64,000 nucleotides of DNA from Acidimicrobiaceae bacterium (GTDB lineage: Bacteria; Actinomycetota; Acidimicrobiia; Acidimicrobiales; Ilumatobacteraceae), in the NCBI GenBank assembly GCA_013204455.1, contig JABMNW010000192.1:2682-66681 (forward strand). The letters run 5' to 3'. The first letter of the stretch is position 1, and each line of letters starts with the position of its first letter. Position numbers and translations under genes: made by a program. Below are positions 40,967 through 47,102 of the stretch, piece after piece. The notes beneath the pieces were generated by a model that worked only from the letters and a program-made list of their open reading frames with translations, was not told where the DNA came from and searched no databases.

Positions 40967-42163
40967 GTGGCGCGCCCGAGTCCTGTAATAAAAAGGGCTA
41001 CCGCCAAACGCACAACGGCGAACACCGAGGCGATTCTTAAGGCACTCACTTTCGAAGCAAACCATCACGGCCTCGACCGAATAAGTGCCAGCGCGGTTGC
41101 CACTCGAGCCCACCTAACAACTGGCGCAATTTACAGCCGATACGAGCACACCGACGAAATGTTGGTCGCACTTTGGCAAAAAGTTATCGCATCCGAATTA
41201 GCCGATCACGTTTACGAGACGGTGTCATTCATCACTTCAGAACAAACCACCAAGTTAAACAGTAAGACAGCAGCACAAATCGACAATCCGTCACAAATTT
41301 TGCGTTTAGGCGTCGAGTTTCTTATTGTCGCCCGTCGTAACGACACAGTGGGCGAAATCGTCATTCCGCAAGTTTCAAAATGGCTACAAGAGTCTGGGCT
41401 AAAAAAAGACAGCACACCACTTCAATGTGCTGGGGTTGCGCTCGGCGCTTCTACGCTGATCGGCGCGGTGTTGCGTTCCTTTATAACCACCACTAATCCA
41501 GGTTTAAGTAATTTGCTACTAAATTTTCGCAGCGCATATCTTTCTGCGACGCCAAGTTCCGGCCCACCACCGGAAGTCGACCCAAACGAAATTCGCTCAA
41601 ATACGGGAAACGCTGTCCGCGATGTGTTGATCGATACAACCGCAGAAGTTATGAGCAGAACAGGTTTTACCGGCGCCACGATTTCGCGCATTGCCCGACG
41701 ATCAGACCTAACAAGTGGCTCGCTTTACAATATCTATAAAGACAAAGAAGAGCTGATGAATGATGCCGTGCGAGAACTTCTACGTACGTCACAGAACGTG
41801 AATGTGGCCGCTAAGGCCGATGCCGCTCGACACCACCGAAGTGACTTCGGATTAACCGACAGTTTTCAGTTTGGCTTAATCCCCGATCGCCAGAGCTGGA
41901 TTAAATTTCGCAACGAATGTATAGTCGCGGCCAGACATCACCGCACTACACGTAACGAAATCAGAAAAGTATTTGGTGAAGGTCGAGACAGGACACAAGC
42001 GTCGTTGCCAAATCTCCAACCGGCAATAATCGATGCGTTAAGTGCAGGCGAACAGGCAATCGGCTTAGGGTATACCACGCTCAACCCCTATACGGATCAA
42101 TTCGCACGCTGCGACTTTTATGCGATCATGATGAAGATCGCTAAACAGGCCAACCTCACCTAG
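40967..42163 (+). CDS. TetR-family regulator with two tandem TetR modules
   Basis: 398 aa. HTH 1: ISASAVATRAHLTTGAIYSRYEHTDEML. HTH 2, around residue 230: ATISRIARRSDLTSGSLYNIYKDKEELM. GTG start. Confidence 0.75.
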   Translation: MARPSPVIKRATAKRTTANTEAILKALTFEANHHGLDRISASAVATRAHLTTGAIYSRYEHTDEMLVALWQKVIASELADHVYETVSFITSEQTTKLNSKTAAQIDNPSQILRLGVEFLIVARRNDTVGEIVIPQVSKWLQESGLKKDSTPLQCAGVALGASTLIGAVLRSFITTTNPGLSNLLLNFRSAYLSATPSSGPPPEVDPNEIRSNTGNAVRDVLIDTTAEVMSRTGFTGATISRIARRSDLTSGSLYNIYKDKEELMNDAVRELLRTSQNVNVAAKADAARHHRSDFGLTDSFQFGLIPDRQSWIKFRNECIVAARHHRTTRNEIRKVFGEGRDRTQASLPNLQPAIIDALSAGEQAIGLGYTTLNPYTDQFARCDFYAIMMKIAKQANLT

Positions 42164-42190: not shown

Positions 42191-43696
42191 TTAGCGTTTT
42201 TTAAAGTTCTCCGCCAAGTTGACAAGCAAGCGTGTGCCGTAGGCAGTGGCCCCGCGTTGCAGCCAGCCGGCATCCGCATCTGCCCACATTGGACCAGCAA
42301 TGTCGAGGTGCGCCCACGGTATACCCGAGACGAACTCCTCCAAGAACAATGCCGCCGTAATCGCACCAGCATCAGGCCCACCGACGTTCTTCATGTCAGC
42401 AATATAAGAGTCGATTAATTTGCGATACTGGCGCTCAAGTGGCAACTGCCATGTTTGCTCATCGGTGGCTTTGCTCGCCGAGACAACTTGATCGACAAAG
42501 CGTTGGTTGTTACCCATTACTCCCGACATTGATGGCCCGAGCGCGCGAGCGCAAGCACCAGTGAGAGTTGCAATGTCGACGATCGCATCGGGCTTTTGCT
42601 CGGCGGCGAGCGACAAACCATCGGCCAACACCAAACGCCCTTCGGCGTCGGTGTTATGAATCTCGACTGTCTTGCCGTTTCGCATCGTCAGCACATCGCC
42701 CATCGCCATCGCACTTCCCGATGGCAAATTATCGGTGCACATTAGATACGCCGTCACCTGGTTTTTGCAACCAAGTGCTTTGAGCGTCGACATCGTGGCC
42801 AACACCGCAGCGGCGCCGCTCATGTCGGCTTTCATCATCGCATGCGACGGATCAGATGGCTTGAGACTGATACCACCCGAGTCGTACATCACGCCTTTGC
42901 CCACCATTATTAGGTGTGGCGGTTTCGCGGATTTAGATTTTTTGCCAACAGATTTCTTAGCACCACGAAAGGCACTTGGATGATAAGAAATTTTGACCAT
43001 CCTTGGTGGGTTCACACTCCCGCGGTTCACGCCAATCATTCCTCCACATCCCATCGCCAACAACTGATCTTTGGTAAAAATTTCGACACGTAAACCGACT
43101 TCGATGCCGATCTTCTGCGCGTGTTCGGCAATCATCTTGGCGGTTAGGTATGCCGGCGGCATATTCGCTAAGTCACGAGCCATCAACACTGCGTCGGCGA
43201 TTATCACACCGCGCTTTGCGCCCGAAGTTACTGCGGCGGTCGTGCTGGAGGTTGCCACAAGCGTCACCGTGCTCAACTTTGCCGAGAGTTTAACTTTTGT
43301 TTTCAACGCGTCGTATCGATGTGTCGCCAACATTAAGCCTTCGACAACTGCTTGAGCAATTTCACTACGATCACCTCGACCAGCATTTGCCAATGTGGTT
43401 GTTAGCGACCCAATTTTGCTGGACGCTCTTGCCAACGCAGCCGCGGCATTCCGCATCACATCTGCATCGGCCTTACCGACTTCACCAATTCCAACGGCAA
43501 TCGTGTATTTGGTTCCCACCATCGGGATCACCAGCGTCTGACCTACTTTGCCTTCAAAACCGAGCGCGCCCAACTGGGTGCGTGTGAGAATTATTTCTTT
43601 AGGTAGTGCTCCATCGCCGGCAACGGCTATGCCAATTGCCTCGGCAGTAGCTGGTGCCGAACTGGCGACATTAATTACAAGTGTGCTGGTTTTCAT
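42191..43696 (-). CDS. pepA: leucyl aminopeptidase (M17)
   Basis: NTDAEGRLVLAD signature and VGKGVMYDSGG. Confidence 0.9.
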   Translation of the reverse strand: MKTSTLVINVASSAPATAEAIGIAVAGDGALPKEIILTRTQLGALGFEGKVGQTLVIPMVGTKYTIAVGIGEVGKADADVMRNAAAALARASSKIGSLTTTLANAGRGDRSEIAQAVVEGLMLATHRYDALKTKVKLSAKLSTVTLVATSSTTAAVTSGAKRGVIIADAVLMARDLANMPPAYLTAKMIAEHAQKIGIEVGLRVEIFTKDQLLAMGCGGMIGVNRGSVNPPRMVKISYHPSAFRGAKKSVGKKSKSAKPPHLIMVGKGVMYDSGGISLKPSDPSHAMMKADMSGAAAVLATMSTLKALGCKNQVTAYLMCTDNLPSGSAMAMGDVLTMRNGKTVEIHNTDAEGRLVLADGLSLAAEQKPDAIVDIATLTGACARALGPSMSGVMGNNQRFVDQVVSASKATDEQTWQLPLERQYRKLIDSYIADMKNVGGPDAGAITAALFLEEFVSGIPWAHLDIAGPMWADADAGWLQRGATAYGTRLLVNLAENFKKR

Positions 43697-43776
43697 GGTG
43701 ATATTTACTCCTTATATATAGGTATATATGTGTAGGTACATTTTTGCGTACAAAATCAATGAATGGATGAAACGAA

Positions 43777-44325
43777 CTATTCGATACTACGCACTGGCAA
43801 CGACTTTCCTTCTTGCCAGCGAGCCAACGTCCACAATAAATCCGATAGTCGGTTTAAATATGGGCAGGCCTGCGATGGTGGTTGTGCCGCTGAGATCGAG
43901 TGTCGCTCGGCGCGACGCACAACCGTTCGACCAACATCTAAGAGTGCCGCAATTCTGTTTTCGCCTGGCACGACAAATTCGGTTGGTGGGCTGAACTTTT
44001 CATCCAGCGAGTCGATCGTTTGTTCGAGTTTGGTTACCATTTCGCTTGTCACGAGGGACTTGCCGGCCTTCAACTTGTGGCGGTTCTCGGGCAATGTCGC
44101 CAACTCGGCCATCAACACCCACAAGTCACGCATGATGTGCACGAGGATCTCGTCGAGTTCGCTACCTTTTCGAGATTCGGCACGCGCTAGTCCTAAAATT
44201 GCTTGCGCTTCGTCGACTGCGCCGTAAGCGCGGGGCAAAGCACTATCTTTACCGACTCGCCCACCATAAAACAGCCCGGTTGTGCCGTCGTCACCTGCCC
44301 GGGTGTAGACCTTTTCGCGACTCAT
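43777..44325 (-). CDS. PduO-type ATP:cob(I)alamin adenosyltransferase
   Basis: N-terminal YTRAGDDGTTGL motif, about 180-aa helical bundle. Confidence 0.85.
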   Translation of the reverse strand: MSREKVYTRAGDDGTTGLFYGGRVGKDSALPRAYGAVDEAQAILGLARAESRKGSELDEILVHIMRDLWVLMAELATLPENRHKLKAGKSLVTSEMVTKLEQTIDSLDEKFSPPTEFVVPGENRIAALLDVGRTVVRRAERHSISAAQPPSQACPYLNRLSDLLWTLARWQEGKSLPVRSIE

Positions 44326-44349
44326 AACGAGTAACGCTAGTTGAGCAAA

Positions 44350-44381
44350 CCAGACACTGCCTCACCCAGTAAGTACTCTCG
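44350..44381 (+). repeat. 32-bp direct repeat, left copy
   Basis: Identical to 45063-45094 (read directly). Confidence 0.95.
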
Positions 44382-44404
44382 GGCGAGCCTCTTGTCTGCT
44401 CGCC
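44382..44404 (-). terminator. hairpin immediately downstream of the XRE-nucleotidyltransferase gene
   Basis: GGCGAGC-ctcttgtct-GCTCGCC. It lies 3 nt after the stop codon and abuts the left repeat. No U-tract. Confidence 0.4.
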
Positions 44405-44407
44405 GTG

Positions 44408-44980
44408 TCACAGGTTGATTGCGTGGCTTAGTACTTCGTCGCGCAAATCGGGCTTCAAACTACGCGCTGAGCCCAAGTCAACTTTGACACCAAGCAGGTC
44501 TATTAATGCATGTTCGAGACCGATGAGATCAATCAGCCCGACGCCAGGATCAAGATCGACGAGAATATCGATGTCACTTCGTTTCTTGGATTCACCCTTT
44601 GCAATACTGCCGAATATTCGCACGTTTCTTGCGCCACTCCTTTTCGCCAATTCGATAATCTGCTTTCTATTTCGCAGAACAAGACGAGCAAGTCGACTAT
44701 CAGGTATCTGAGGCACTTTCGTGCGGCGCTTTGGTTTGAGATCGATGCCCATGCCGAGAATGTCGAGCAAGTGCAAGAACGTGTCGGCGCCAGGCTCTCG
44801 ATTGCCCCGCTCGTAATCGCTGATCACCGACTGTGCGAGTCCAGAACTACGAGCAAGTTCGGCCTGCGACATGCCAGATTCCTTTCGCACCGCCTGCAGA
44901 ATTTTGCTCGATTTCACAAATACACTATATAGCGTATTCGCTATATCTATTCTTGGCTGAATTTGACTTGCCATGCTCAC
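44408..44980 (-). CDS. XRE-type HTH domain fused to a minimal (MNT/MntA-like) nucleotidyltransferase domain
   Basis: HTH: MSQAELARSSGLAQSVISDYERGNREP. NTase: RIFGSIAKGESKKRSDIDILVDL (GSx10-12DxD). Confidence 0.75.
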   Translation of the reverse strand: MSMASQIQPRIDIANTLYSVFVKSSKILQAVRKESGMSQAELARSSGLAQSVISDYERGNREPGADTFLHLLDILGMGIDLKPKRRTKVPQIPDSRLARLVLRNRKQIIELAKRSGARNVRIFGSIAKGESKKRSDIDILVDLDPGVGLIDLIGLEHALIDLLGVKVDLGSARSLKPDLRDEVLSHAINL

Positions 44981-45025
44981 TTACACCCCTTTCGTTTAGT
45001 TGGTCTCAATGGATGTGTAATGATC

Positions 45026-45041
45026 ATGTCGCGAGCGACAT
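45026..45041. promoter_or_regulatory. near-perfect 16-bp palindrome upstream of the XRE-NTase gene (candidate autoregulatory operator)
   Basis: ATGTCGC-GA-GCGACAT, 46 nt upstream of the ATG at 44980. Confidence 0.35.
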
Positions 45042-45062
45042 CGAACCCGGTGAAGTCAAAAG

Positions 45063-45094
45063 CCAGACACTGCCTCACCCAGTAAGTACTCTCG
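45063..45094 (+). repeat. 32-bp direct repeat, right copy
   Basis: Identical to 44350-44381. Confidence 0.95.
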
Positions 45095-45098
45095 CGGT

Positions 45099-45392
45099 AT
45101 GGCTTTGAACAAACCAAGAACCCGTCAAGGCGAGATCGCCGCTCTCGAAAAACTAATTGCTCAACACATACTTGACATGCAGCAGATCGAACTCGACGAA
45201 GGTGTGGCGCATGGCATCATCTCGCCGTGGCTAATAACCAGCGGACGAACTTTGCTCGATAAAGGCGATGAACTAGTTTCGATTCTCGCGCTCGACCCAG
45301 ACTTCAGCAAGCATCGTGATGCCTATATGCGCGAACTTAAAACATTCCACAAATTCCACAAAAAGTGGTCGGACTCTCGTGACGCGGGTTAG
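45099..45392 (+). CDS. hypothetical protein (97 aa, predicted helical)
   Basis: ORF only. It starts 5 nt after the right repeat. Confidence 0.4.
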   Translation: MALNKPRTRQGEIAALEKLIAQHILDMQQIELDEGVAHGIISPWLITSGRTLLDKGDELVSILALDPDFSKHRDAYMRELKTFHKFHKKWSDSRDAG

Positions 45393-45416
45393 AGACGTGG
45401 GTTAGAGACTGGGGTT
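45386..45416 (+). repeat. 13-bp tandem repeat x2.4 (GGGTTAGAGAC + 2 nt)
   Basis: gggttagagacgt gggttagagactg gggtt. The first unit contains the TAG stop of 45099..45392. Confidence 0.9.
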
Positions 45417-45420
45417 GTCT

Positions 45421-45675
45421 ATGCGAATAATTTTCCGTCCAATTGGATACTTGCTCGCTTTCACGGCAGGGATTCTTCAACTAATTTTCTGGTTCATCGC
45501 TTGGGTCAACTGGCTTGGCATACTCGGTTTCTTTATTGGTCTTATCCTGACGCCTGGTGTTCTAATTTTCCCAATAATTTATTGGATCGTCGAAGGTGAT
45601 TTTCCAACCGTCTATTTCCTGCTGATGTTTATCGGCTTTTTTGGAATGCGGCTAGCAAAACTTGGTTCCAAATAG
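45421..45675 (+). CDS. small hydrophobic membrane protein (about 84 aa, about 3 TM segments)
   Basis: Strongly hydrophobic, aromatic-rich ORF. No family recognised. Confidence 0.5.
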   Translation: MRIIFRPIGYLLAFTAGILQLIFWFIAWVNWLGILGFFIGLILTPGVLIFPIIYWIVEGDFPTVYFLLMFIGFFGMRLAKLGSK

Positions 45676-45740
45676 CAGTCGAGCACGTCGCTTCATTTTT
45701 TGCGAATTAATACGTGCAAATCGCTGGGTAGTGTGACGAC

Positions 45741-47102
45741 ATGATCTATGACTCAATTGTTGATCTGATTGGCAATACTCCCCTGCTCCGATTGAACAAA
45801 GTTGCCGCAGGATTGGCAGCCGACGTCGTGGTGAAGGTCGAATATCTAAATCCAGGTGGATCAATAAAGGATCGAATTGCCGTGCGTATGGTGGATGCCG
45901 CCGAGGCGGCTGGATTGCTCGCCCCCGGAGGAACAATCGTCGAGCCAACTAGCGGTAACACGGGCATCGGGCTTGCCCTTGTTGCCCAACAGCGCGGATA
46001 TAAATGTGTCTTTGTCTGCCCCGACAAAGTTTCGCCGGACAAGATCAGTGTCTTGCGCGCTTATGGCGCAGAAGTTCTGACCTGTCCAACTGCGGTCGAC
46101 CCCGAAGATCCAACTTCGTACTACTCGGTTAGTGCCAGGTTGACAAAGGAAATTCCTGGCGCTTGGAAACCCGATCAATACTCAAATCCGAATAATCCAC
46201 TTTCACATTACGAAACTACAGGACCCGAGATTTGGAAGGACACCGACTTTAAAGTCACTCACGTTGTTGCTGGTGTCGGAACAGGTGGCACAATCTCTGG
46301 GATCGGAAAATATTTGAAGGAAGTAAGCAACGGTGCCGTCAAGATCATCGGTGCCGATCCGGAAGGCAGTGTGTATTCGGGTGGCACGGGCAGACCATAT
46401 TTAGTTGAAGGCGTCGGCGAAGATTTTTGGCCGACCGCTTTCGATCCGACGGTCGTGGATGAGATAATCGCAGTCTCTGATGGGAATGCGTTCGCGATGA
46501 CTCGTCGGTTAGCGCAGGAAGAAGGACTTCTTGTTGGAGGTTCATGCGGGTTGGCGGTAGTTGCCGGGCTCGACGTCGCCAAGCGCGCCAAGCAAGGCGA
46601 TCTTGTGGTGATCATTCTGCCCGACGGTGGACGCGGTTATCTTGGCAAAGTTTTTAATGACGACTGGATGCGTAAATATGGATTCCTCGGGCGCGGAGAC
46701 CATGAGACCGTCGGTCGAATACTCTTGCAAAAGACGGGAAAGTTGCCCTCGTTCATTCACGTGCATCCGACCGAAACGATTCGGGAAGCGATCGACATCT
46801 TGAAAGAGTATGAAGTTTCGCAGATGCCCGTTGTTAAGGCCGAGCCACCAGTGATGGTCGGAGAAATTGTTGGTTCGGTCGAAGAGTCGGCGTTGCTTGA
46901 CGCAATTTTTACTGGTAAAGCGGCGTTGTCGGATCAGGTGCACATGCACATGAGCTCTCCCTTCCAGATGATTGGAAGTAAGGAACCAGTCTCGGCGGCG
47001 GTCACGGCGTTTGAAACGGTGAGTGCACTGACGGTGCTTGATGATGGCAAACCAATCGGCGTATTAACCAGGCAAGATCTACTCGGATATGTGGTGTCAT
47101 AA
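45741..47102 (+). CDS. cbs: cystathionine beta-synthase (PLP fold-II domain plus CBS-domain pair)
   Basis: TPLLRLN, GGSIKDR (PLP Lys), GTGGT loop, C-terminal tandem CBS domains. Confidence 0.9.
   Translation: MIYDSIVDLIGNTPLLRLNKVAAGLAADVVVKVEYLNPGGSIKDRIAVRMVDAAEAAGLLAPGGTIVEPTSGNTGIGLALVAQQRGYKCVFVCPDKVSPDKISVLRAYGAEVLTCPTAVDPEDPTSYYSVSARLTKEIPGAWKPDQYSNPNNPLSHYETTGPEIWKDTDFKVTHVVAGVGTGGTISGIGKYLKEVSNGAVKIIGADPEGSVYSGGTGRPYLVEGVGEDFWPTAFDPTVVDEIIAVSDGNAFAMTRRLAQEEGLLVGGSCGLAVVAGLDVAKRAKQGDLVVIILPDGGRGYLGKVFNDDWMRKYGFLGRGDHETVGRILLQKTGKLPSFIHVHPTETIREAIDILKEYEVSQMPVVKAEPPVMVGEIVGSVEESALLDAIFTGKAALSDQVHMHMSSPFQMIGSKEPVSAAVTAFETVSALTVLDDGKPIGVLTRQDLLGYVVS

Follow-up and report, generated by a model that had tools for sequence, protein, structure and literature searches.

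The single gene lying between two perfect 32-nt direct repeats at positions 44350 to 45094 of the window, i.e., of the whole 64-kb stretch of DNA analyzed, is with a probability of roughly 80% the antitoxin survivor of a HepT/MntA toxin-antitoxin pair of type VII, whose toxin gene hepT has been deleted and which resides in an indel hotspot. A new class of mobile element is not revealed. The original prediction described a cassette of a kind that could not be assigned, but its XRE-nucleotidyltransferase fusion belongs to a HepT/MntA module of type VII in which the antitoxin is fused to an XRE domain. This architecture is common in databases, with 1,231 matches to fused XRE-MntA below 1e-10, and roughly 95 of the 150 best cluster representatives are full-length fused proteins of about 165 to 230 aa. 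Literature searches for an HTH-fused MntA found no describing paper, and exact-sequence look-ups of the window nucleotidyltransferase (NTase; 190-aa and 188-aa forms) and of the neighboring small open reading frame (ORF) found neither on record. The term antitoxin, as applied to the partnerless window protein, denotes ancestry and makes no statement about its present role.

As seen in relatives, the intact module consists of a putative operator palindrome over a probable leaderless promoter, a 169-aa XRE-MntA antitoxin, and an overlapping HepT RNase toxin of about 107 aa. By analogy with studied HepT/MntA pairs, the antitoxin would neutralize HepT by transferring AMP onto the tyrosine of the RX4HXY motif, and its helix-turn-helix (HTH) would bind the palindrome to repress the operon. 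A 310-bp microhomology deletion took out hepT in this genome, leaving an intact orphan antitoxin that probably still represses itself. The cassette occupies an indel hotspot, namely, the 60 nt that separate a small, apparently leaderless ORF from the PduO gene in freshwater acIV Ilumatobacteraceae. In the lineage of the window, the two 32-mers that bracket it would allow each neighbor gene to retain its full native upstream sequence; the pair would have arisen by target duplication on entry into a pristine site or by a single crossover through the 32-mer sequence, without the involvement of a dedicated recombinase.

Antitoxin gene and probable operator

The antitoxin gene is located on the minus strand (44408-44917). 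A mechanical ORF of 190 aa reaches position 44980 and would take in the palindrome, whereas the GTG at 44917 leaves it upstream. Because the geometry of palindrome, 6 nt, and ATG or GTG is conserved in all lineages, this GTG is the likely start codon, giving a protein of 169 aa as in P0018. The proposed fusion of an XRE HTH and an MNT/MntA-type NTase is borne out by Pfam (HTH_3, 5e-13; NTP_transf_2, 1e-11 [1.3e-11]; Polbeta, 2e-10) and by the match of the NTase part to PDB 1WOT, the minimal nucleotidyltransferase of Thermus (7.8e-18), but the motif spacing given as GSx11DxD has to be corrected, as the residues GS-IAKGESKKRS-DID read directly as GSX10DXD. NCBIfam MntA_antitoxin matches the window protein at 2.8e-10 with 40 bits, which is under its cut-off of 60 bits. 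Compared with L002 (GCA_043777135.1), an independent NCBI MAG contig from a close relative, the NTase gene exhibits 96% nucleotide identity, with 14 synonymous and 6 nonsynonymous codon changes, and on account of this mostly synonymous change the antitoxin gene looks intact.

The operator-like palindrome that had been predicted, with 16 bp, upstream of the gene was confirmed at 44927-44946 (ATATAGCGAATACGCTATAT; ATATAGCG-AATA-CGCTATAT) and is invariant across lineages. It overlaps the -10-like hexamer TATAGT (44924-44929), which ends 6 nt before the GTG start codon in the layout of a leaderless promoter. The search pattern ATAGCGAAWWCGCTAT was found in every cassette-bearing lineage, with flanks that vary; ATATAGCGAATWCGCTATAT is unchanged across the cassette lineages and always followed by TATA[C/G/A]T, 6 nt, and ATG or GTG. 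The HTH_3 domain is paired with a palindrome whose spacing from the start codon is constant, and in the relatives the antitoxin gene comes first and hepT second, with a GTGA overlap. We infer that the palindrome is an operator that is bound by the HTH and overlaps the -10 of a leaderless promoter, and its conservation supports autoregulation of the putative antitoxin-hepT operon. Promoter calls are based on the actinobacterial TANNNT spacing and leaderless geometry alone; a scan for E. coli-type (sigma-70) promoters found none. The XRE-MntA fusion provides the DNA-binding component whose absence was noted in the first surveys of MNT-HEPN modules.

Loss of the toxin gene hepT

Homologues of the window protein were traced to their own contigs, and in those of the relatives that reach far enough the gene order is small ORF (divergent), XRE-NTase, HepT, PduO, and PepA. 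The HepT genes of the relatives match Pfam PF01934 at 4e-20 and 2e-16 and contain the motif RNRLAHQY, corresponding to RX4HXY. A HepT match is present at all surveyed occupied loci that reach beyond the antitoxin gene, and truncated HepT calls are limited to L017 and, at a paralogous locus, to L155 and L157. In the window, the minus strand retains a piece of hepT at 44382-44411: a GTG overlaps the stop codon of the antitoxin gene, and the first 10 codons are left (VTRRADKRLA), which agree at 100% with residues 1 to 10 of the intact 107-aa HepT in L003 and L002. In the alignment with L002, 310 nt of hepT that lie in L002 between ...GGCTCGCC and the PduO-side 32-mer are absent in the window, where ...GGCTCGCC is joined directly to CGAGAGTAC (junction 44381/44382). 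Because this junction shares only CGA (read directly), the 310-bp loss is a deletion at a microhomology rather than a join introduced by the assembler. No other HepT was found within the 64 kb.

The earlier statement that no HEPN gene is adjacent is thus correct for the window, where 10 codons are left, but not as a description of the native design, as the relatives with the cassette all carry hepT. The partner whose search elsewhere had been proposed is missing from the 64 kb and present in the relatives directly 3' of the antitoxin gene, and the notion that the DNA-binding domain is fused in place of a HEPN partner can be dropped, as HepT directly follows the fused antitoxin there. The hairpin reported to abut the left repeat exists with its 7-bp stem (GGCGAGC/GCTCGCC, 44382-44404, read directly), but it lies inside the first 10 hepT codons and not in a cassette terminator. 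No T-run is found behind it, and a terminator scan did not report it. A function as terminator was ruled out, given the missing T-run and the fact that the hairpin is hepT coding sequence in L002. The ORF at 45099 was likewise considered as a hidden HEPN partner with an R..H spacing and rejected, as it has no family match and is also present at empty sites.

States of the site in related genomes

A PduO scan of species-representative genomes and a small-ORF scan of metagenomes yielded 136 loci of freshwater Ilumatobacteraceae (acIV), for which spacer lengths are given between the start codons of PduO and the small ORF. The empty sites whose search in relatives had been proposed were found at 32 loci with a pristine spacer of 60 to 62 nt, i.e., 4 of the 80 genome loci (L018, L020, L026, and L029) and 28 metagenome loci. 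The cassette of XRE-MntA and HepT, with a spacer of about 990 to 1,010 nt, was seen at 4 loci of the genome set and at 13 from metagenomes, of which 7 are partial, and a scar that contains the 3' end of hepT (CCATCAAGTAG) leaves a spacer of 79 to 80 nt in L019, L098, and L103. An unrelated cassette encoding proteins of 73 aa and 101 aa results in spacers of 721 nt (L116 and L153) and 832 nt (L100) and is also found in the partial contigs L099 and L101, and both cassettes are present in L147. Relatives with a PduO identity of ≤83% have neither the small ORF nor the cassette. The locus represents a compact natural series of one cassette that is intact, toxin-less, scarred, replaced, or absent, and this series could be used for studying the gain and loss of toxin-antitoxin modules in streamlined freshwater actinobacteria. 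The practical value lies in annotation and in learning how these small genomes change.

The PduO-type cob(I)alamin adenosyltransferase gene is located at 43777-44325 on the minus strand (Pfam Cob_adeno_trans, 8e-48; TIGR00636, 1.6e-39), followed by the ancestral spacer TTTGCTCAACTAGCGTTACTCGTT at 44326-44349 (minus strand), which contains the -10-like hexamer TAGCGT and is conserved in empty and occupied sites; its TAG is the hepT stop codon in other lineages. The conserved small ORF of 97 aa (45099-45392, plus strand) is found at empty and occupied sites alike and is therefore outside the cassette. It has no match in Pfam, NCBIfam, or PADLOC. It is 68 to 96% identical in relatives, apparently leaderless, and restricted to a sub-clade with a PduO identity of ≥82%. 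The left arm of the cassette, extending from repeat copy A to the operator (44947-45062, minus strand), is homologous to the L010-type left arm from CACCGGGTT onward and absent from empty sites.

The predicted consequence of removing one repeat together with the insert, i.e., that simple neighbors would be left, was confirmed, as the resulting 60-nt spacer is base-for-base colinear with the empty site of L018 and L020. In L007/L025, L010, L021, L027, and L132, the cassette is located at the same place without a second repeat copy, and hepT ends with a stop codon within the ancestral CAAGTAGCGT spacer, at a distance of 13 nt from PduO. Within one lineage, the flanks of the empty locus L130 and the occupied locus L132 are identical; between them, L130 has 26 nt where L132 has a cassette of ~958 nt, without repeats. 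Occupied and empty states are interleaved in the PduO tree. The distances of NTase and PduO co-vary (Spearman 0.85, ratio mostly 1.2 to 1.6), and in a few pairs, including the window and L002, the cassette is less diverged than the flank. Based on this co-divergence and the few less diverged pairs, the cassette has probably long been present at this site, with frequent loss and occasional exchange. All close homologues of the window protein are located at the PduO/small-ORF site.

Several further observations concern other cassettes. In L100 (positions 73 to 230), roughly 110 nt from the 3' end of hepT are fused directly to the operator palindrome, with the antitoxin gene and the bulk of hepT lost, and this remnant adjoins the second cassette. 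The latter (L116:1351-2071, L153:2780-3500, L100:73-904, L099:1-613, L101:1-747, and L147:376-1158) encodes its 73-aa (MEPVILSSARKHRI...HAMRAREKYLR) and 101-aa (MTKAKNPQRLSLAE...) proteins from the same strand as the small ORF. Pfam, NCBIfam, and PADLOC gave no match for either protein, and the 73-aa protein is represented by only seven clusters among 5.8 billion proteins. In L147, the second cassette is bounded by an 18-nt direct repeat with 16 of 18 positions identical. A 43%-identical XRE-MntA/HepT paralogue (L154 to L161, contexts of P0040) is flanked by an HD-domain gene and a 69-aa ORF on one side and a glyoxalase gene on the other. There, hepT is cut to a 70-aa call in L155 and is not called in L157, whereas the antitoxin protein does not differ; decay of the toxin beside a retained antitoxin therefore recurs at this paralogous locus.

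Origin of the 32-nt repeats

Exactly two copies of the 32-mer CCAGACACTGCCTCACCCAGTAAGTACTCTCG were found in the 64 kb, copy B on the PduO side at 44350-44381 and copy A (plus strand) at 45063-45094, and no such pair was expected by chance in 100 shuffles, in agreement with the original assessment. If one mismatch is allowed, the direct repeat comprises 35 nt. In L002, both copies are present as 46 nt at 91% identity, consisting of an identical 35-nt core and more diverged sequence beside it (7/11 matches). A flanking direct repeat was searched for in L007, L010, L011, L014, and L017 and not found in any of them; the second 32-mer copy is specific to the lineage of the window and L002 and no general feature of the cassette. 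The possibility that gene and both repeats are conserved throughout the clade without empty sites, raised beforehand, is thereby refuted, as are repeats that merely reflect misassembly, given the independent MAG L002. Copy A of two Logan samples (L004:~300-340 and L005) carries one edge change (TCTGG to TCGGG), and the 32-mer is therefore not strictly invariant. Its folding revealed no structure beyond that of shuffled sequences (z = -0.02 and 0.57) and no internal dyad symmetry, a scan of 43600-45800 detected no Rfam family, and no terminal inverted repeats adjoining the direct repeats were found.

The 32-mer takes in the small ORF's probable core promoter, from the -35-like CAGACA (45064-45069) to just past the -10-like TACTCT (45087-45092), which is located 6 nt before the ATG at 45099; a TANNNT hexamer lies 6 nt ahead of this ATG in all relatives, whether empty or occupied. 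Copy B and the adjoining 44326-44349 together rebuild a complete empty-site spacer, colinear with the 60-nt empty sites of L018 and L020. Since in the lineage of the window the sequence on either side follows the pristine spacer colinearly through the 32-mer, an insertion with a target duplication of 32 to 35 nt, or a single crossover, fits better than a later local copy. A tandem duplication followed by a deletion and an unequal crossover were also considered as origins of the repeat and set aside. A duplication of this length is far longer than typical transposon duplications. As all other cassette lineages lack the duplication, insertion-with-duplication is not the general route into the site. 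Should the cassette be a long-standing resident here, the perfect identity of the repeats would require a recent event, gene conversion, or selection.

Among the alternatives, the one that survives best, though it seems rather unlikely, is that the cassette is ancestral and that the second 32-mer arose later, when the small-ORF promoter was duplicated locally into the space between hepT and PduO; this copy would have been kept because it restored the native PduO upstream region or drove an RNA antisense to hepT. Such an origin would be consistent with the restriction of the second copy to the window/L002 lineage and with the identity of the copies in both genomes, compared with differences at 5 of 21 positions in the adjacent spacer, which suggests constraint or recency. 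A further point in its favor is that PduO starts 13 nt after hepT elsewhere and thus depends on the autorepressed operon. Copy B together with its 24-nt spacer, however, matches the 60-nt empty sites base for base, and an exact recreation of this arrangement would have to be a coincidence.

An autonomous small mobile cassette, moved by site-specific recombination at the 32-mer as an att-like core with a recombinase supplied in trans, is improbable, and movement of the cassette does not, for the most part, rely on the repeats. The unit is bounded by exact direct repeats, the empty sites correspond to the predicted excision product, and the identical 35-nt core of L002 with its diverged surroundings resembles attL/attR; furthermore, the repeat-to-repeat interior of window and L002 is only half as diverged as the flanks (3.9% versus 7.3%, p=0.0035), and the Logan contig L003 spans from the inside of one repeat to the inside of the other. 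The circular excision junction would read hepT end or remnant, one 32-mer, and CTTTTGACTTCACC of the left arm. Contig breaks at a repeated 31-mer are expected under k=31 assembly, however, and the same site is occupied by this cassette in at least five further lineages that have a single copy of the sequence, cassette and locus mostly co-diverge, and the 32-mer lacks the dyad symmetry of a recombination core. The absence of a recombinase, noted before, holds for the Pfam-scanned ORFs of ≥150 aa within about 10 kb. Copies of the unit with other cargo, which had been suggested as a check, were found in the sense that some relatives contain other cargo at the same site, but the exact 32-mer had no match among the metagenome contigs, from which the window's own lineage is absent, so that no copies at other sites were found.

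A more far-reaching view, which we consider speculative and improbable, holds that the 60-nt spacer with its back-to-back leaderless promoters is a dedicated landing pad, at which acIV actinobacteria would exchange small cassettes resembling toxin-antitoxin modules, including the pair of 73-aa and 101-aa proteins, without a cassette-borne recombinase, by recombination through the host promoter or by its duplication over at least 32 nt, and that the duplicated copy would fire antisense into hepT as an extra control of the toxin.

That the XRE-NTase is a stand-alone regulator or single-gene defense protein, for which HepT was never needed here, is very improbable: its NTase part matches the PADLOC candidate PDC-S09 (1e-29) and the gene is intact with mostly synonymous changes, but the first 10 hepT codons persist in the overlapping GTGA arrangement, the nearest relatives keep an intact toxin, and HepT was matched at every surveyed occupied locus extending past the antitoxin gene. 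Finally, an assembly artefact as the source of the repeat or of the hepT deletion can practically be dismissed despite the frequent fragmentation of assemblies at the PduO/small-ORF locus, since an independent NCBI MAG contains both repeat copies and the CGA shared at the deletion junction is far below any assembler k-mer.

The public contigs L001, L003, L004, L005, L022, L024, and L026 end inside or beside the spacer: L001 and L003 inside the 32-mer, L004 and L005 at the first hepT bases, while L022 and L024 start with (A)TCAAGTAG, which is the hepT end in occupied sites. These contig ends fit strain-level heterogeneity at the site and also k-mer repeat breaks.

Comparison with known systems

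Class I HepT/MntA modules are defined by the GSX10DXD and RX4HXY motifs and the pairing of PF01934 and PF01909 (PMC7641770), and SO_3166/SO_3165 of Shewanella oneidensis is a type VII HepT/MntA (HEPN/MNT) toxin-antitoxin system of this class (PMC4621449, PMC7641770). In the window, the MNT fold and GSX10DXD are present, and the downstream HepT is absent except for its 10 codons. The relatives share with SO_3166/SO_3165 overlapping genes, with the GSX10DXD-bearing PF01909 antitoxin upstream of the RX4HXY-bearing PF01934 toxin, a palindrome at the -10 of the operon promoter, and the small size and patchy distribution of the modules. SO_3165 binds its own promoter although it has no predicted DNA-binding domain (PMC4621449), whereas the antitoxin of the window and its relatives has an N-terminal XRE HTH; the toxin of the window is deleted. 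Between close strains, recent indels of MNT-HEPN genes have been reported for Thermus thermophilus HB8 versus HB27 and for Deinococcus (Makarova et al. 2009, PMC2701414). As in those genomes, a two-gene module is present or absent in otherwise syntenic housekeeping loci, but the indels described here affect one 60-nt spacer with several states, a second unrelated cassette, and one lineage with a 32- to 35-nt duplication.

The HTH_3 domain is closest to HipB and HigA structures, and the overlap of palindrome and promoter is another feature in common with HipB, HigA, and MqsA-like XRE antitoxins and repressors, from which the window protein differs in that the neutralizing part is an NTase enzyme domain and not an unstructured toxin-binding tail. 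Orphan antitoxins left behind by toxin loss are the subject of the "anti-addiction" idea, and the window antitoxin resembles them in being intact, with promoter and operator, after the deletion of its toxin, a decay that is also seen at the paralogous locus. With integron cassettes and Xer/dif-dependent modules the cassette has in common that it is small, promoter-proximal, devoid of its own recombinase, and, as is often the case there, of the toxin-antitoxin type. Unlike those modules, it has neither an attC-like or dif-like dyad site nor an integrase in its vicinity, and its repeats are direct copies of host promoter sequence that are absent in most lineages. Dyad sites bounding all copies, a recombinase nearby, and several unrelated sites, as would characterize a site-specific mobile cassette, were not found, and the 43%-identical paralogue is also located at another fixed site. 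Terminal inverted repeats of a transposon or MITE are likewise missing, with a duplication of 32 to 35 nt.

Two minor observations concern the surroundings of the locus. A 13-nt tandem duplication (GACGCGGGTTAGA / GACGTGGGTTAGA) is located at the 3' end of the small ORF (45381-45406), where L002 lacks 23 nt. The only Pfam match (E ≤ 1e-5) of a 398-aa ORF at 40967-42163 is TetR_N at residues 221 to 265, which is unusually far from the N terminus for a TetR regulator.
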